Positions 33,427-42,874 of a stretch of DNA of 64,000 nt are shown here, in pieces (within the stretch, counting starts at the first letter, position 1; each line of letters starts with the position of its first letter). Location of the stretch: assembly GCA_020425605.1 (NCBI GenBank), contig JAGQRH010000001.1:92650-156649 (forward strand), given 5' to 3'. Below the pieces are notes generated by a model. That model was not told the origin of the DNA and searched no databases. It worked only from the letters and a program-made list of their open reading frames with translations. The position numbers were made by a program, and so were the translations under genes. This DNA comes from Planctomycetota bacterium. GTDB lineage: Bacteria > Planctomycetota > UBA8742 > UBA2392.

Positions 33427-35220
33427 CTAGTGGTTCGTGCCGAATTCGGTCGTGCTGACGAGCGCGTAGAACAGATCCTCGAATCCCAGCTGCTCGGCCG
33501 TGCCGCTCTGCTTCAGGTCCTTTAAGTAATCCTGCGTGCGGTGCAACTCGGTCAGTGTAGGCCGACGCGACAGGATCGACAGATACATGGCCTCAATGCG
33601 ATCATCCAGCTCTTTGTAGTCGCGCATGATCGCGTACACGAGCGAGCCGTTGCGCGAATCGCTCAGGCGGCGGGTGACTTCGCCGTTCAGGATGCTGAGC
33701 GCCTGGTCGACGCTCAGTGCGAACGTGTCGCTCTGCATGCGCTCGTCGTCGCTGTTCAGCGCTGAGTACTGCGCAGCCAGCCCGCGCCGCAGTCTCCAGT
33801 CCGCACCCATCTTCTCGATCCAGCCTTCGTAGGTCTTCAGCAGTTCATCGTCGTAGACAGCCTGGTAGTCACCTTCCGGATTCTCTTTTTTCTGCATGTC
33901 CTGGAAGGTCTTGAACTGGCGCAGCCGCTCATAGGCCGTGACATTCTTGCGCGCGAACGACTTCAGCATCGAGTCTCCGTCACGCATGCTGAAGAGTGCG
34001 CCGAAGAACTGCTCCGGAGTGAGCTGGCGGGTGTGTGCGCTGGCGAAATGCCATTTCTCCGCGCCTGCCACCTCATCGCCGGAGAGCTGGTAGGCGCGCG
34101 TATTCAGGATTGCCCGGTACAGCTTCTTGACGCTGTAGCCGTGGCTGGCGAACCAGTCGCCCATACTTGCCAGCAGCTCTGGATGACTGGCTTCGTTCAG
34201 GCTGTTGAAGTCGTCAACCGGGTTCACGAAGCCCTGGCCGAACAGGAAGCTCCAGTAGCGGTTTACCAGATATTGCCGCGCCGTTTTGTTCTTGGGCGAA
34301 GTCAGCCACGTGGCGTAGATCTTGCGCCACAGAACGGTGTCTCGTGATTTGACGGGCGTATCGCCCAGCAGCTGGGGCTTGTCGTAAGTAAGCAGGTCAT
34401 CGATCCGGTTCAGTGCTTCGGGCGGCAGATCGGGTGACTTGGCGTAGGCCTCGATCAGGTTGCGCGGCAAGATCGGCTTGGTCTCAATGCGCGGGTCAAC
34501 CGGCTGGGTGTAGAAGTCAGCAGCGACCTCAATGCCCGTGAAGAAGCTTGCCAGGCCGACGAACGACTCCTGTGTCCAGGCCTCTTCATACGGGTGATCG
34601 TGGCACTCCGCGCACTGGATCTGGATGCCTGCGAAGTTCTTGCTGGTCAGCCCCGCCATGTTCGGTGAGCGCGCGGGCAGGCCCATCAGCGCATAGTACG
34701 CAGCGGCAGGGTTCTTCGAGATCGGCCCTTCGGCCAGCACCATCGCGTTGATGGTCTCATTGAAGCCGGCATCTTTGTTGAATTGCTCCGCCAGCCAGAC
34801 GGCCAGGACTTCGCCCGCCGACACGCCAAGATCGCCGAAGTCGTTTCCGCGTTCGCGCAGGATGGGCATCCACAAGTCGGCGAGATGCCGGCCGAAGCGT
34901 GGGTCATCCAGCAGCCGGTCGATCAGCCGGGCGCGCTTGTCGAGTCGCTTGTCATCGAGGAATTCGCGTGCTTCTTCGCGTGTCGGGGGCAGCCCGACGG
35001 TGTCGAGGTAGACGCGGCGCAGGAACACGTCGTCGAGCGCAAGTTTCGCAGGTTTGACTTCGTCGCGCTGCCAGACTTTCGCAAGCTCGGAATCGATGGT
35101 GTCACTGAGTGCCTGGACGGCGTCAGCCTTGTCGGCTGAGACCGTCGTCGGGGCATCACTGAAACCCAGCGCCGCGAACACGGCGGCAGCAGTCGCAAAT
35201 GCAAGGCAACGTGTGAGCAT
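33427..35220 (-). CDS. DUF1549/DUF1553 domain protein
   Basis: FLRRVYLDTVG.PPT, KRARLIDRLL, IQCAECHDHP, VNRYW..LFG.GFV.PVDD, SHPELL and LSRRPT motifs. Confidence 0.93.
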   Translation of the reverse strand: MLTRCLAFATAAAVFAALGFSDAPTTVSADKADAVQALSDTIDSELAKVWQRDEVKPAKLALDDVFLRRVYLDTVGLPPTREEAREFLDDKRLDKRARLIDRLLDDPRFGRHLADLWMPILRERGNDFGDLGVSAGEVLAVWLAEQFNKDAGFNETINAMVLAEGPISKNPAAAYYALMGLPARSPNMAGLTSKNFAGIQIQCAECHDHPYEEAWTQESFVGLASFFTGIEVAADFYTQPVDPRIETKPILPRNLIEAYAKSPDLPPEALNRIDDLLTYDKPQLLGDTPVKSRDTVLWRKIYATWLTSPKNKTARQYLVNRYWSFLFGQGFVNPVDDFNSLNEASHPELLASMGDWFASHGYSVKKLYRAILNTRAYQLSGDEVAGAEKWHFASAHTRQLTPEQFFGALFSMRDGDSMLKSFARKNVTAYERLRQFKTFQDMQKKENPEGDYQAVYDDELLKTYEGWIEKMGADWRLRRGLAAQYSALNSDDERMQSDTFALSVDQALSILNGEVTRRLSDSRNGSLVYAIMRDYKELDDRIEAMYLSILSRRPTLTELHRTQDYLKDLKQSGTAEQLGFEDLFYALVSTTEFGTNH

Positions 35221-35928: not shown

Positions 35929-35967
35929 CAACGCCGTAGAAAGCCGTTGCGGCCTTCTACGGCGTTG
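35929..35967. terminator. Hairpin after the selenoprotein gene
   Basis: caacgccgtagaa...ttctacggcgttg 13-bp stem; no clear U tract. Confidence 0.45.
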
Positions 35968-35977
35968 TAAGTGTGAG

Positions 35978-37228
35978 CTACCAGGGTCGTGCTTTGAGCT
36001 TGAAGCTGAACTCCAGCTTCTTGCCGTTGCGTAGCACCTTGATCGTGATGGTGTCGCCGGCGTCCTTGTTCAGCCGGATCCAGGTAGTCGGGTTGGTTGT
36101 GTATTCAATCGTCGTGAGGTCATCGACGGCATACACGACATCGCCCACCTGAACGCCCGCGGCCTGCGCGTTGGTCTTGACCCAGAACTTGGTGATCTCA
36201 AGCCCGAACTCATCTTCCTTGATGCCGAGCTTGCGCTTTTCCGACTTGTCCAGTTCTTTGCCCCAGAACTCGGGGAAGGGCTCAAGTGCGTGGGTACCGG
36301 CGCGGCGCGCGATGTCGGTGACGCGCCACCACTTGTCGAGCGGCAACTCAAGGTCGACTTCTTCATCCTTGCGCTGGACGGTCAGCTTGAGCGTCTTTGA
36401 TTCCATCGGGTGCATATTCAGGGCGTACTGAAGGTCGCCAAACGTCAGGACTCTCTGACCCTCCAGTTTGATGATCTCGTCCTTCTTCTTGAGCCCGGCG
36501 TCCTTGGCTACTCCCTCCACGCCGTCAATCTCCAGCCCCTTTTTCGGGTCGATCTGCACGCCAAGGCGCTTGATGTCCGGGTAGATCCACATGTCCTTCA
36601 GTCGGTCGAGCTTGCCCTGGCCCTGGAGCATCTTTGTCTTTGCCTGCCCGAGGTGATGGCAGTGGACACACTTGCCCTTGGCAATCTCGTCGTTCTTGAT
36701 GTCCGGGTAGTCGCGCGGGAAGAACGGGTCCGGCCGTTTCGGCTTGGGCGCGTCGGCGGCCTTCTGTTTCTCGTGCTGCTCAAGGCCACGTTCCAGTGCG
36801 GTTTCAAGAGACTCTGCGTTCAGGAACGTCTCAGCGCTCTCGTCGTCTCGTCCGCCGAAGCGCATATAGATCTGCTCGTCGGCATTGAGGATGAAGCAGT
36901 AGAGCGTCGAGTCCGGATCGAATTCGAACAGGCCGATGTCCACGCCGGTCAGGTCCGCGATTCGGATGCAGACATAGTCGCGCAGTAGCTTGGCAATCTT
37001 ACCCCGTGGGTTGACCAACTGGTCATGGAAGGCTCGGCAAGGCACTCACGGGACGCATCGGAACTCAAGGAAGATCGGCTTGTCTTCCGCGCGTGCCTTC
37101 TCGAGCCCGGCCTTGTAGTCGGTGATCCATTCAAAGCCACCCGCATCAACAGTTTCGGGCGGCGTGCTTGCCCACCACGCGCCGATCATGGCGAGCGTGA
37201 GCAGCAGGCTGACAGCCATGCGCTTCAT
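35978..37228 (-). CDS. Exported thioredoxin-like (CxxUxxC) / CxxCH / double-PDZ selenoprotein, read through UGA at 37046-37048
   Basis: Signal peptide; W.TDY.AGL..A....KPIFLEFRCVP-UGA-VPCRAF in frame; CVHCH; two PDZ-like regions; joins ORFs 37046..37384 and 35978..37045. Confidence 0.82.
36993..37045 (-). promoter_or_regulatory. Candidate bacterial SECIS element
   Basis: UGACC-AGUU-GGUCA apical hairpin, loop 25 nt after the UGA with G at loop position 2; lower CUUGCC/GGUAAG pairing. Confidence 0.6.
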
Positions 37229-37304
37229 TGGTTTCTCCATGTGCCTCAACCCCCTTTCGGGGGTCCTCGAACATTTGAATGTAGCTTTGAGGGCAACCGG
37301 GCCA

Positions 37305-37342
37305 GAAAAAACGCAAATCGCCCCGCACTGCGGGGCGATTGC
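37305..37342 (-). terminator. Rho-independent terminator
   Basis: aatcgccccgc-agt-gcggggcgatt then tgcgttttttc on the minus strand. Confidence 0.8.
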
Positions 37343-37385
37343 ATGGGCGCCTACTTGCCGTTGTGGGCGGGGCCACCATCCCACA

Positions 37386-39053
37386 CTAGCCCTGCGGGTG
37401 AACGAGCAACTTCGATTTCAACTCGGCCGGGTTGCGAGCGTCGATGTACAGCGCGTGAGTCAGTTTTCCGTTGCGCTGGTCACTTTTGACGCCGTGATTG
37501 TATTCGCCGACGGCGAGCAGGAAGCGTCCCGGGAAGGGCAACACAACATCGAAGCGACCTTCGCTTTCGTCGTAATTCCAGCGTCCGTAGTACCAGCGTG
37601 CGTACTCTGGCCAGTGCTCAGTCGGCTCTTGCCCAATGGCTTCAGCAAGCTTGCACGCGCCTTGGTCTCCAAACGTATGTCCGGGCTCGAAGGGACCGGT
37701 ACCGCGCGTCTGGTAGGAGTTGAAAAAGTCATCCAGATGGATATCACCTTTTGCCAAACGCCGGTCGTACATTGCTGGCTGAAAGCCGTAGATCAGTGCC
37801 TTGTGGACGTCACTCCAGTCGTTGAAATCCGGCCATTCCTCGGGCACGGGGATAAGATCGAAGCCTGCATCAAGAATAACGGATTCCCGACGTTCATTCG
37901 CGCCCAGTTTCAAGACTTCCGGGTGCGGTAGGGTTTCCCAGACAGAAACAAGCAGCTCGCGCGCCTTGAGCGTCACCTCTATCGGATTTGTTGTATCCTC
38001 TAGTGCCGAGCGTTCGAGCAAGACGGGCACATACCCTGGCGCGGACACGACGAAGAACTTCTCTTGAATCTTGTCATGCTCACCAACGTCGACCAGTTCG
38101 CTGGGCCACGGGTAGCGCAAGACTCCGATGTCACTGGAACGCCCCAAGATCTGAACCCCATCGCAGGTCAGCATTGCGCCCGAGACGGGCCGGCCCGCCA
38201 CATTCCTCACGAGGATTTGATGAACATCGGCATAGTCGACTGGGAAGACACGAAGGCGAGGCCGCGCCTCGCCCGTCACCAGAATCTGGTGGCGCAGACT
38301 GTTAAGACCGCCGTGGGTACGCACACAGCCCGCCTGTCCAATCACGGCCTCAACGGGCAGCATATTGGGGCCAGTGATGCGCAGACCAATAATGTCGGAA
38401 CGACGGTAGGAGTATGGAATAACGAAGGCGACTTCATCCTTGCGTGCGTCACTGGTGTAGACCAACGCGCCATCGTGGGAGGTTGCCTCGGCGATACTTC
38501 CCTTCCTCCATCCCATTGATTGGTCGTGATCCACCCACCGAGGCCGGATCGCCAGCATTCCGTCCGGCTGCATTGGGTCGAAGAAATCGCCCATGCCGAA
38601 GCTCTTCGGGGTCTGTCGATAGGCCCAAACGTCCAGAAAAACCGGAGTGCCAAGGTACTCATTTTGCGGTTTAGGTCTGGCAGCATCTAAACGAGCCCGA
38701 GGCGACCGCCACGCGAGCCGCGTATTCGTGAAATCGTCTGGGTTCCAAGCGATAACTTCCGGTGGGTCTGAAAGCCATCGCTCTTCATCGTTTTCCGCAG
38801 GCTTCCCAGTGCCACTGTCCTTGCCAACACTGCCCGATCCACTTGAATTGGTGGAACTGGCGTTTAGCGGCGCCGGTTGATTCGAGTCCGTGCTGTCGGA
38901 GCCATTAGCCAAGCGGGACCTTGTGCTACCGCACGCCGTGCCCGACTGAAAAACAGGCGTGTTGCCGTCCGCCGACAAAATCAACCACACGGCAGCCAAG
39001 GCCAGCAGGACCAAAACGGCAATAGCCGGGAACCATTTTTGGCGCACTTTCAT
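37386..39053 (-). CDS. Membrane-anchored beta-rich hypothetical protein (carboxypeptidase-regulatory-like folds)
   Basis: N-terminal TM, Ser/Asn/Gly linker, GRPVSGA.L...G and V.APGYVP patterns; TAATG overlap with the RTX gene. Confidence 0.65.
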   Translation of the reverse strand: MKVRQKWFPAIAVLVLLALAAVWLILSADGNTPVFQSGTACGSTRSRLANGSDSTDSNQPAPLNASSTNSSGSGSVGKDSGTGKPAENDEERWLSDPPEVIAWNPDDFTNTRLAWRSPRARLDAARPKPQNEYLGTPVFLDVWAYRQTPKSFGMGDFFDPMQPDGMLAIRPRWVDHDQSMGWRKGSIAEATSHDGALVYTSDARKDEVAFVIPYSYRRSDIIGLRITGPNMLPVEAVIGQAGCVRTHGGLNSLRHQILVTGEARPRLRVFPVDYADVHQILVRNVAGRPVSGAMLTCDGVQILGRSSDIGVLRYPWPSELVDVGEHDKIQEKFFVVSAPGYVPVLLERSALEDTTNPIEVTLKARELLVSVWETLPHPEVLKLGANERRESVILDAGFDLIPVPEEWPDFNDWSDVHKALIYGFQPAMYDRRLAKGDIHLDDFFNSYQTRGTGPFEPGHTFGDQGACKLAEAIGQEPTEHWPEYARWYYGRWNYDESEGRFDVVLPFPGRFLLAVGEYNHGVKSDQRNGKLTHALYIDARNPAELKSKLLVHPQG

Positions 39054-40972
39054 TACGCACTCGGGGGCTTGTTGGCCGTGCTCAGGTTCAAGCCAGATCC
39101 CTGAACATCAAGGGGCTCGGGCGGATCCGCCCAATCGGGAGTGAGGTCGTTGTCGTCCACATAGAACGTGTCATTATCACCCCCGCCTTCTGCCGAATCG
39201 AAGTTTGTGGAGGGATTGTCGTAGCAGTCCAGCGTGTCCTCTCCGGCACCGCCATTGAGCGTGTCCACATAGCCACCGCTGCGGTCGATCAAAATGTCGT
39301 CGCCGTTTTCGCCATACAACTCATCCTGCCCATCGCCGCCGTCGATTTGGTCGTCGCCGTTCGTGTCGCCTTGGCTCGTGCCGTCACCACCGTAGAGGTG
39401 ATCGTTGCCGTCATCACCCCAGATCAGATCGCTGCCGTCATTGCCGTAAACATAGTCCGCACCACCCCATCCGGCGAGGAAATCGTCTCCGCCTCCGCCA
39501 TAGATGTGATCGCCGTCGTCGCCGCCGCTGATCACATCCGCGCCCTCCTGGACGTACAGGGGCGAACCGCTCCAGTCGCCGTAGAGATAGTCTGCGCCAG
39601 CCATTCCAAAGAGTAAGTCGGCGCCTCCTTCACCGTAAAGAAAGTCGTTGTCGGCGTCGCCGTACATTTGATCGTTTCCGCCGGACTCGCCGCCGCCGAA
39701 GTTTATGGCCAACCCAGTTTCACCGTACATCGTGTCATCGCCGTCTCCGCCGTACATGTTGTCGTCGCCGAGACCTCCATAAAGAATGTCGTTTCCATCC
39801 TCCCCGGTAATCCACTTCCCGCTGCCACTTTCATCCCCGTCGTTGCCGTAGCAGACATCGGCCCCCGGGCTGGAACCACCGGTAGCGCCACCGTCCCCCT
39901 CAATAAGGTCGTCCCCTTCGCCACCATCAAGGGTGTCGCTTCCGCCGCATCCACTTATCACATCGTTGCTCTTGCCACCGTAGAAAACCTGATCGTTCCC
40001 CATACCGCAGTTGATGTCGAACGAACCGTTGCTGTCGTAGATGTAAATCCAGTCATTGTGGGCGTTCGTCGACTCGTCCAATTGCCACTCGCCATACACG
40101 ACACCGTTGTTCTGCTCCAAGTGGATTTTGTCCGCACCGCCTCCGCCGTAGATTTTGACTTCGCCGACGGCAGAGGCGACATAGATGTCATCCGCGTCCG
40201 GGCCTGCGTGGACAGTATCATCGCCGCCACCAGTCCAAATATCGTCCTCTCCGCCGTCGGTATGGTCGCCGGCGGTATACTGGTCGCCGAAGATCGTATC
40301 GTGGTCCGGACCTCCATATATCTTGTCGAAGCTCGTATCTCCGCTACCGGAGCTTGTCCCACCTACGGCCACTTGGCCCGTGCCATTGCCGAGAATGATC
40401 CAATCGCCACCTTTGCCGCCGTATATCTCGTCCGCGTCGTCTTCGCCCCAAATGCGGTCGTCGTTGTCTTGGCCATCCGCTTGATCAACACCCGCGCCGC
40501 AAAGGACGATGTCGTTGCCTGCGCCGCCCAGGATCGTGTCTCCATCGTCCATGCCAAACAGGAAGTCTGCGCCTGGCCCGCCCACTATTTCATCGGCGCC
40601 GCCAAAGCCAAAGATGACCGCCCGTTCCTCGGAACCCAGTCCGGTTGCATCCAGATAGTCGGCCCCACTGGTACCGAACCATATGCGATATGGGCTGGCC
40701 TCAAGGGGACCGATTGTTTCACTGCCGGCTTCGCCGTCATCAATGGTCTCTTCTCCGACGACGACTTCGTATGCGTACGGCGGAGATCCCGACAGTCCCT
40801 GAATCGTGATTACGTAGTCTTCAATTGTTACCGTGAGCGTACCGCTGTCATAGCTCCAGAATCCGGAGCCTACGACATCGTCGGGCGTCGGCGGAGATTG
40901 TGTAACTATGGACGGTCTGTCTGCCGTTCCGGAAAGTATGACGGCGCGTTTGCCGCAAATAACGCACTGCAT
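39053..40972 (-). CDS. RTX/hemolysin-type Ca-binding repeat protein
   Basis: Roughly 40 GGxGxDxLxG-like nonapeptide repeats by eye; the upstream 366 codons of the listed ORF are antisense to the ABC1 gene and not credible. Confidence 0.88.
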   Translation of the reverse strand: MQCVICGKRAVILSGTADRPSIVTQSPPTPDDVVGSGFWSYDSGTLTVTIEDYVITIQGLSGSPPYAYEVVVGEETIDDGEAGSETIGPLEASPYRIWFGTSGADYLDATGLGSEERAVIFGFGGADEIVGGPGADFLFGMDDGDTILGGAGNDIVLCGAGVDQADGQDNDDRIWGEDDADEIYGGKGGDWIILGNGTGQVAVGGTSSGSGDTSFDKIYGGPDHDTIFGDQYTAGDHTDGGEDDIWTGGGDDTVHAGPDADDIYVASAVGEVKIYGGGGADKIHLEQNNGVVYGEWQLDESTNAHNDWIYIYDSNGSFDINCGMGNDQVFYGGKSNDVISGCGGSDTLDGGEGDDLIEGDGGATGGSSPGADVCYGNDGDESGSGKWITGEDGNDILYGGLGDDNMYGGDGDDTMYGETGLAINFGGGESGGNDQMYGDADNDFLYGEGGADLLFGMAGADYLYGDWSGSPLYVQEGADVISGGDDGDHIYGGGGDDFLAGWGGADYVYGNDGSDLIWGDDGNDHLYGGDGTSQGDTNGDDQIDGGDGQDELYGENGDDILIDRSGGYVDTLNGGAGEDTLDCYDNPSTNFDSAEGGGDNDTFYVDDNDLTPDWADPPEPLDVQGSGLNLSTANKPPSA

Positions 40973-41016
40973 GAAAGCGCGAGCGATATCAATCCTGTCG
41001 TCATGATGGAGCGCAT
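40906..41016 (-). other. 36-aa signal-peptide ORF, out of frame with the RTX body (probable frameshifted 5' end)
   Basis: GAGGGG RBS then MRSIMTTGLISLALSCSALFAANAPSYFPERQTDRP*. Confidence 0.6.
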
Positions 41017-41209
41017 GGAAGGTCCCCTCTCTAAGCGTCAAGAGAGCATCATTGCCGCAGATGAGTGTACTTGCTGGGGGCCCAGCGGGTTGGATAATTC
41101 TGCTAAGATATCTCCAGAGTGCTGCAAATTGTATGCAAAGTGTGCGGGCTGTTCGTCCTTGGGGCAGCACACTGGCCACGCCGTGTAACGGGCCTGTAAA
41201 CTGTCGCTT

Positions 41210-42874
41210 ATGAAGATCTCCCTGAAGCCGCAGCACCTGAAACGCTATCGCCAGATTGCGTCGATGATGCTGCGTTTCGGATTCTCCGAGCTGGTGCGTT
41301 CCAGCGGCCTCGAGGAGCTGCTGGGCGAAGACCTCGGACGCGTGACACAGCGCGCCCACCCCAAGCCTGAAGAGTTCGCCCGCGAACTTGAGTCGATGGG
41401 CCCTACGTTTGTGAAACTGGGACAAGTGTTGTCGACTCGCGGCGACTTGATACCCGTCGAGTACATCAAGGCGCTCACCAGCCTGCAGGACGACGTTGAG
41501 GCCGTGCCGTTCGACCAGATCGAACAAGTCGTGCTGGAGGAGTTCGGGCAGGGGGTCGCAAAGACGTTCCTTACATTCGACCCCACACCGGTCGCCGCAG
41601 CGAGCCTGGGCCAGGTGCACAAGGCAACGTTTGCGGATGGGCGGGAAGTGGCAGTGAAGGTCCAGCGGCCGGGCGTGCGCGCAAAGCTTGCGGACGACCT
41701 CGACGTACTGGATGAAGTGGCGAGCACGCTGGAGACACTGACACAGTTCGCCGAGCGCTACCGCTTCAAGAGCATCGTGGACGAGTTCCGCCGCACGCTG
41801 ATGCGTGAGCTGGACTACCGCACGGAAGCCGACAACCTGACGACGCTTGCCCGCAACCTGGCAGATTTTCCCGAATTGCTGGTGCCTCAGCCCGTGGCCG
41901 ACTTCACGACCGCCCGCGTGCTGACCATGGATTTCGTCAACGGGCGGAAGATCACCGAGCTGACCGACGAAGACCGCGCCGGTATTGACGGCAAGCACCT
42001 CGCAGAGCAGCTGCAGAACGCCTACATGAAGCAGTTTTGTATCGACGGGTTTTTCCACGCGGACCCGCATCCGGGCAACGTGATGCTGACGGGCGATGGA
42101 CGCATCGCACTACTGGACCTTGGCATGGTCGGCCGAGTCAGTGTCGAGATGCGTGAGCGACTGCTACGTCTGCTGATCGCCCTCGGTGAAGGACGCCCGG
42201 AGCAGGCCGCTGACCTGGCCGTCAAGATCGGCCACCCCGGCAGCGACTTCAAGGAGCGCGAGTTCCGCGATCGTATCAAGACAATCGTGAACGCTTACCA
42301 GGGCGCTCTGCTGGAGGGTGTTGAGCTGGGGCGCGTGGTGATGGACCTTGCCCGCTCAGCCGGCGATACGGGCATGCGCCCGCCGAGCGAACTGACCATG
42401 ATCGGCAAGGCTCTGATGAACCTGGACGAGCTAGGCCGGTCGCTGGCGCCGGACTTTGACCCGTACCAGGCGATTCGCCGCAGTGCGATTCCGCTGGTGT
42501 TGAAGATGTTGCGGCAGTCGACATCGCCCGCGTCACTGCTTGGTCGCGTGCTCGAGGTGAACGAATTCGCCAATCAGCTGCCCGGCCGGGTAAACAAGAT
42601 TCTCGATCGAGTGGCTGAGAACCGGCTTGAATTCAAGGTCCAGACGATCGACGAGAAGGAGCTGATCCAGGGTTTCCAGAAAGTCGCGAACCGGATTGCG
42701 CACGGACTGGTACTTGGCTCGATGATCGTGGGCGCCGCGATGCTGATGGGCATCAAAACCGAGTTCACGATATTCGGCTATCCGGGGTTCGCGATCCTGT
42801 TGTTCATTGCCGCGTTGGGTGGAGGTGTCGCTCTAGTGTGGGACATCTTGCGCCATGACCGTCGCACCAAGTGA
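41210..42874 (+). CDS. ABC1/AarF/UbiB family atypical kinase
   Basis: LGPTFVKLGQ.LS.R.D (here MGPT), AAASLGQVH, VAVKVQRP, GFFHADPHPGN and LLDLGMVG motifs; C-terminal TMs. Confidence 0.95.
   Translation: MKISLKPQHLKRYRQIASMMLRFGFSELVRSSGLEELLGEDLGRVTQRAHPKPEEFARELESMGPTFVKLGQVLSTRGDLIPVEYIKALTSLQDDVEAVPFDQIEQVVLEEFGQGVAKTFLTFDPTPVAAASLGQVHKATFADGREVAVKVQRPGVRAKLADDLDVLDEVASTLETLTQFAERYRFKSIVDEFRRTLMRELDYRTEADNLTTLARNLADFPELLVPQPVADFTTARVLTMDFVNGRKITELTDEDRAGIDGKHLAEQLQNAYMKQFCIDGFFHADPHPGNVMLTGDGRIALLDLGMVGRVSVEMRERLLRLLIALGEGRPEQAADLAVKIGHPGSDFKEREFRDRIKTIVNAYQGALLEGVELGRVVMDLARSAGDTGMRPPSELTMIGKALMNLDELGRSLAPDFDPYQAIRRSAIPLVLKMLRQSTSPASLLGRVLEVNEFANQLPGRVNKILDRVAENRLEFKVQTIDEKELIQGFQKVANRIAHGLVLGSMIVGAAMLMGIKTEFTIFGYPGFAILLFIAALGGGVALVWDILRHDRRTK

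Follow-up and report, generated by a model that had tools for sequence, protein, structure and literature searches.

Selenoproteins that combine a thioredoxin-type domain with PDZ domains have been described before. One selenoproteome review includes the Trx7/PDZ family with a CxxU motif and one selenocysteine (Sec) (PMC13188914), and another contains the entry "PDZ domain-containing protein, pfam13899, CxxU", likewise with one Sec (PMC9312934). The term 'PDZ' does not occur in the main text of the paper that a review cites for the family (Zhang & Gladyshev 2008; PMC2398784). NCBIfam represents the family by model NF041199, named "Trx7/PDZ domain-containing (seleno)protein", which has a curated equivalog cut-off of 300 bits. 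Members occur in Planctomycetota, Acidobacteriota, and Verrucomicrobiota and are widespread in the first two phyla. The joint use of c-type heme and selenocysteine in a periplasmic enzyme is known from the multiheme cytochrome c selenoprotein MccSep, which carries five hemes, with Sec beside a Cys-ligated heme (PMC13510729).

The gene analyzed here lies in a 64,000-nucleotide stretch of DNA from a member of the Planctomycetota (contig JAGQRH010000001.1, positions 92,650 to 156,649 of the forward strand; hereafter the window), and its product is a member of this already catalogued family. Read as a single frame, the protein matches NF041199 with 447.6 bits (E 3.5e-134) across model positions 2-390 of 390. 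It is an expected member of a known, published selenoprotein family and is not novel as a family. We are highly confident that the locus specifies one exported Trx7/PDZ selenoprotein of 416 amino acids, whose UGA codon is read as Sec via a small downstream hairpin and which would operate by a redox mechanism of the kind outlined below.

On the minus strand, ATG 37228 and the TAG at 35980-35978 belong to one frame, whose sole interruption is the TGA at 37048-37046 (...TTC CGA TGC GTC CCG TGA GTG CCT TGC CGA..., yielding FRCVP-U-VPCR); the translation of 37240-35978 contains this one TGA and zero further stops. The listed open reading frames 37046..37384 and 35978..37045 share that frame, and translation confirms the proposal of an earlier note, made from the sequence alone, that they form one gene split only by TGA, with Sec at residue 61 of a 416-residue protein. 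ATG 37228 is the likely translation start, matching the homologs L013 and L014, which begin at the equivalent MKR; an alternative start at ATG 37240 would lengthen the protein by four residues (420-aa form). The terminator-like hairpins on either side of the gene suggest that it has its own transcription unit (Table 1). Further upstream on the same strand are a 555-aa open reading frame with zero Pfam matches (37386-39053) and a 1005-aa RTX calcium-binding repeat protein (39053-42070; PF00353, 145 bits).

The locus illustrates cleanly how Prodigal-style gene callers split a selenoprotein; once the frames are joined, the protein regains its signal peptide and its active site. The expectation that standard annotation would miss such a gene is correct in that Prodigal-type calls truncate it, but it overlooks the dedicated NCBI model. 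The nearest GenBank homolog, P0003 (93% identity), is likewise entered in truncated form, as a 'PDZ domain-containing protein' of 324 aa.

Table 1. Features of the Trx7/PDZ selenoprotein locus and its surroundings (positions in the window; residues counted from ATG 37228)
Feature	Position	Strand	Residues	Basis or remark
Terminator-like hairpin with T-run	37316..37340	-		Belongs to the upstream gene; just upstream of the promoter region
Shine-Dalgarno-like GGAGA	37234..37238	-		Read directly; 5-nt spacer to ATG 37228
Complete selenoprotein gene, 416 codons + TAG	35978..37228	-		Sequence; NF041199 score; starts of L013/L014
Putative Sec-type signal peptide	37166..37228	-	~21 residues	By eye: MKR, hydrophobic core, AWWA↓S
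Disordered N-terminus / signal peptide			1-22	AlphaFold2, pLDDT <50
Thioredoxin-fold domain	36758..37153	-	26-157	Pfam, AlphaFold2, PDB sequence search
Redox motif C58-V-P-U61-V-P-C64	37037..37057	-	58-64	C58 and the U column invariant in 68 sequences
In-frame TGA, selenocysteine 61	37046..37048	-	61	TGA at this column in 73/74 loci; TGC in L020
SECIS-like hairpin UGACC-AGUU-GGUCA	37012..37025	-		5-bp stem; compensatory changes within the clade
His152, candidate distal heme ligand (speculative)	36773..36775	-	152	Conserved in 66/68
Helical linker			158-222	AlphaFold2
c-type heme attachment-type motif C187-V-H-C190-H191	36656..36670	-	187-191	In the helical linker; invariant in 68/68
PDZ domain 1	36341..36559	-	224-296	Pfam, AlphaFold2, PDB sequence and fold matches
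PDZ domain 2	35999..36265	-	322-410	Pfam, AlphaFold2, fold match
Terminator-like hairpin, 18 pairs	35929..35967	-		Directly 3' of the stop codon
LURP-one-related-like open reading frame, ~194 aa	35277-35861	-		Between the selenoprotein and PSCyt2/PSD1 genes
PSCyt2/PSD1 (DUF1549/DUF1553) protein	33427-35220	-		Downstream

The domain layout of the joined protein is well resolved. An AlphaFold2 model computed from a 68-sequence family alignment (pLDDT 87.9, pTM 0.85) has clear domain boundaries. Pfam identifies Thioredoxin_7 (PF13899, 36.9 bits) at residues 33-95 (37-99 in the 420-aa form) and PDZ (PF13180, 61.5 bits) in two stretches. Among structures in the PDB, those of DegQ, DegP, and RseP match the PDZ tandem both by profile (E about 1e-12) and by Foldseek (E 5e-9); Foldseek of the full model returns PDZ tandems only, and weaker sequence matches include the PDZ domain of MamP (4jj0) and Thioredoxin_7-type proteins such as 3f9u (E 4e-5). 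The Trx7, CxxCH, and PDZ-PDZ architecture described in the earlier note is reproduced by Pfam, NCBIfam, and AlphaFold2, and its signal peptide agrees with our own reading of the N-terminus, from which we infer export by the Sec pathway.

The linker preceding the PDZ tandem carries the motif CVHCH, which opens helix 190-203 in the AlphaFold2 model and whose residues C187, V188, C190, and H191 do not vary among the aligned family members. Its conservation extends to distant relatives. A search of 1.8 billion proteins followed by clustering at 50% identity produced 147 representatives, of which 132 cover the CxxCH site and 30 the thioredoxin site; C-x-x-C-H is kept in 128 of the former. The second Cys of the thioredoxin motif is lost in seven of the 30 (e.g., RCVPGKVG, RCVKT), and each of these Cys-type members with a decayed CxxC (P0145, P0151, P0182, P0196, P0197, P0202, and P0209) retains CxxCH, which indicates that CxxCH is more strongly constrained than the thioredoxin CxxC. 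Judged from these alignments, no functional element of the wider family is better conserved than CxxCH; neither selenoproteome review mentions that it is invariant in Trx7/PDZ proteins (PMC13188914, PMC9312934).

The CxxCH motif probably binds one covalent c-type heme. This is the best reading because the His is conserved like both Cys residues, the protein is apparently exported, and a cytochrome c assembly gene occurs in the genome (PF01578 scores 102.4 bits for an open reading frame of 1112 aa and 66.6 bits for one of 311 aa). His152 is the only conserved candidate for a distal ligand in the 68-sequence alignment. Column 200, which is Met in the window and His in the consensus, was rejected as a distal ligand; it is variable (H39/Q13/L5/E3/M2).

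It is possible, if rather unlikely, that CxxCH is instead a second redox disulfide feeding CxxU, or a structural or catalytic site for Zn, Fe, or Cu, which would make the protein a pure thiol/selenol oxidoreductase. Such an interpretation would fit the linker, for which Pfam and NCBIfam searches of the joined protein returned no match to a cytochrome family and which AlphaFold2 folds confidently without a cofactor; a separate model of its 93 residues (134-226; pLDDT 84) gave zero Foldseek matches with E<1 against the PDB and so has no structural relative there. It would also fit the lack, His152 aside, of a strictly invariant distal His or Met. However, a CxxC disulfide needs no His after its second Cys, and this His is conserved to the same degree as the Cys residues (128/132). 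Moreover, the protein is apparently exported and a cytochrome c maturation gene occurs in its genome, and the persistence of the motif in members without a thioredoxin CxxC argues that it is more than a relay partner of that site.

A broader proposal, on which our confidence is evenly divided, extends the mono-heme reading to all Trx7/PDZ proteins. Their core would then be the CxxCH module rather than the thioredoxin CxxC/U, as suggested by the survival of CxxCH where CxxC decays, and in the Sec forms a one-electron heme would be linked with a selenylsulfide (CxxU/CxxUxxC) or a diselenide (UxxU) on a PDZ-guided scaffold. If true, the family would represent an uncharacterized kind of periplasmic heme-selenol oxidoreductase.

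Decoding of the in-frame UGA as Sec is supported most directly by comparison across species. Scanning a single genome for each species identified 74 homologous loci. They belong to Planctomycetota, to Acidobacteriota of the Bryobacteraceae and Solibacter types, to Nitrospirales, and to others, and their protein sequence is well conserved both before and after the in-frame stop. The CxxC/U site reads TGC/TGT-x-x-TGA in 68 loci, TGA-x-x-TGA in five, and TGC-x-x-TGC in one (L020, from Nitrospirales); the recurrence of TGA at one column in nearly all loci, across several phyla, shows that the codon is not there by chance. Cys occupies the same column in 23 of the 30 Cys-type representatives spanning the thioredoxin site. 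Relatives in a large protein database mostly have lengths of 324-356 aa and cover 77-85% of the query, which is consistent with truncation at the equivalent stop, and the few full-length relatives (P0047, P0051, P0115, and P0117) read RCAPC.

If the TGA were a genuine stop, the locus would be a pseudogene or would encode an exported peptide of ~60 aa and, from GTG 37045, a PDZ protein of 355 aa. Although gene callers annotate it in this way in most databases and searches of the assembly did not recover selB, this is very improbable: 73 loci from Planctomycetota, Acidobacteriota, and other groups share the TGA at this column, which corresponds to Cys in the Cys forms, the residues upstream of it are strongly conserved, the downstream product would be without a signal peptide and without half of the thioredoxin fold, and the synonymous sites of the adjoining hairpin are frozen. 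That the TGA is a misassembled or misread TGC is extremely unlikely, since an independent metagenome-assembled genome (MAG; L011) encoding a protein with 94% identity, as well as 72 further loci, has TGA at that position.

Constraint at the RNA level points in the same direction as the protein alignment, namely to Sec. The hairpin lies ~20 nt past the UGA (37025-37012), with its loop starting 25 nt after the UGA and a G at loop position 2. Among close relatives, the stem is kept through paired changes (UAGCC/GGCUA, GGCC/GGCC, CGCCA/UGGUG). Taken alone, this 5-bp hairpin is weak, and folding of the single sequence is uninformative, because the minimum free energy of the 86 nt around the UGA is no lower than that of shuffled sequences (z = -0.04); the argument for the hairpin is carried by the comparative signal. 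In 60 distinct sequences of the acidobacterial type, third-base identity is 0.98-1.0 at codons +7 to +12 counted from the UGA (GAC GCA CAG GTT GTG CTG) and 0.35-0.8 at most other codons, including those of invariant residues. These six codons can form the hairpin GACGCACA-GGU-UGUGC(U)GUC. There is strong comparative support that a hairpin downstream of the UGA, with frozen synonymous sites, has been kept between the clades.

Most of the machinery for Sec incorporation is encoded in the source genome, a MAG of 164 contigs and 86% completeness. Contig C73 carries selA (472.8 bits) and, ~750 nt from it, a tRNA-SeC(tca); selD (398.3 bits; C82:20349-21272) has one in-frame TGA of its own. By contrast, selB is missing from the assembly: the TIGR00475 profile retrieved only IF2, LepA, and similar GTPases, the SelB wing domain (PF09107) had zero matches, and three SelB proteins of the same genus, used as tblastn queries, matched GTPase domains only. 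A match of EF-Tu size, found in the relatives, is absent from the assembly. Because selB scores above the cut-off in all 12 of the nearest genomes (7/7 of the same genus and 5/5 of the same family) and the MAG is incomplete, its absence most likely reflects an assembly gap rather than loss of the trait. The selenoprotein reading of the earlier note is upheld by the NF041199 match, the TGA column, the conservation of the hairpin, and the presence of selA, selD, and tRNA-Sec, and the data support decoding of UGA 37048-37046 by SelA, SelB, SelD, and tRNA-Sec. Most of the conditions under which the note would have been refuted turned out in its favor.

The redox motif itself varies within the family. 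In the AlphaFold2 model, C58-V-P-U61 sits where the active-site helix (62-72) begins, and Cys64 follows one helical turn further. The planctomycete clade of the window and L020 have this third Cys (U-x-x-C), and the acidobacterial clade, which reads CEPU-TNG, is without it. C-V-P-C-x-x-C occurs in 16 of the 30 Cys-type representatives covering the site, in line with the 'RCVPC..C' that the earlier note gave for homologs, and by its sequence the CVPUVPC of the window is the Sec version of this widespread CxxCxxC variant. Five Planctomycetota MAGs (L016 at ~934-945, L017, L018, L080, and L082) have TGA-x-x-TGA in the context R-U-V/D-P/T-U-x-x-C. These loci encode a putative UxxU diselenide motif that is apparently served by a single downstream hairpin. 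UxxU forms go unmentioned in the two selenoproteome reviews, where the family is given as CxxU with one Sec (PMC13188914, PMC9312934).

In 52 of the 74 loci, a gene in the same orientation comes next and encodes a small exported protein (e.g., L045:4672-5466) with weak similarity to DsbD_N (PF11412, 16.5 bits, below the cut-off) and a CxxxxC pair. In two verrucomicrobial proteins of 616 aa (P0115 and P0117), a look-alike of this partner, recognized by eye, forms a C-terminal extension (residues ~430-616). The pairing hints at electron supply of the DsbD type. In the clade of the window, no such partner adjoins the gene; the ORF of 194 aa downstream of it was considered and rejected, being LURP-one-related-like instead, and a tblastn search of the source genome for the partner gave one weak match (E 2.7e-4, C109). 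A homolog of the PSCyt2/PSD1 protein is a downstream neighbor in 21 loci from two phyla.

Taken in sequence, the proposed mechanism would begin with decoding of UGA 37048-37046 as Sec, guided by the small hairpin ~20 nt downstream. Cleavage of the signal peptide would release a thioredoxin-fold domain joined by a ~65-residue helical linker with CxxCH to a PDZ tandem resembling those of DegP and RseP. The mature protein may act in the periplasm as a thiol/selenol-disulfide oxidoreductase whose redox cycle includes a selenylsulfide between C58 and U61; C64 may serve as a third relay, and the PDZ tandem may recruit peptides or the C-termini of substrates. The CxxCH of the linker would carry one c-type heme and serve as an electron conduit to or from the redox centre. 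The analysis demonstrates the single frame, the family membership, the conservation of the TGA/Cys column, the constraint on the RNA, and the domain layout; export, heme binding, the direction of electron flow, and the substrates are predictions. The role as a "sensor" suggested in the earlier note finds no support.

The conservation of CxxCH beyond that of the thioredoxin site, the UxxU forms in five MAGs, and the frequent pairing or fusion with a DsbD_N-like protein together suggest the hypothesis of a redox enzyme that acts on selenols or thiols, is linked to heme, and is supplied by a pathway of the DsbD type. The literature searched contained none of these three features, that is, the invariant CxxCH, the UxxU variants of the five Planctomycetota MAGs, and the DsbD_N-like pairing or fusion.

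Compared with the other members of the NF041199 family, the protein of the window shows no essential difference in its Trx7 and PDZ-PDZ layout, the position of Sec in CxxU, or its phylum. Its clade differs in the extra third Cys (CVPUVPC) and in lacking the DsbD_N-like downstream partner of the 52 loci. With DegP/DegQ and RseP, which are likewise periplasmic, it shares a PDZ tandem that is alike in sequence profile and fold; unlike them, it has no protease domain and carries the tandem on a thioredoxin-fold redox domain instead. Accordingly, the HtrA/DegP protease profile TIGR02037 matches the PDZ part only, with 51 bits against a cut-off of 416.

The magnetochrome-PDZ proteins MamP and MamE are likewise exported and combine PDZ domains with a minimal CxxCH heme module, and the Mam profile NF040965 gives a weak match to the PDZ region only (E 3e-7). 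However, CxxCH precedes the PDZ domains in the protein of the window and follows them in the Mam proteins, which have neither a thioredoxin domain nor Sec; a link to magnetosomes, as in MamP/MamE, is absent. MccSep has a different fold, and homology to it was not detected. The redox domain has its nearest counterparts in Thioredoxin_7 proteins of the DsbD C-terminal type, such as the 'exported cytochrome c biogenesis-related protein' of PDB 3f9u, which have in common with it the thioredoxin fold and a motif at the N-terminus of the active-site helix, and in CxxU selenoproteins of the Rdx/SelW type, where Sec also replaces the second Cys. Sequence similarity to these proteins is weak (E 4e-5), and to their shared redox site the protein of the window adds a CxxCH linker and a PDZ tandem.
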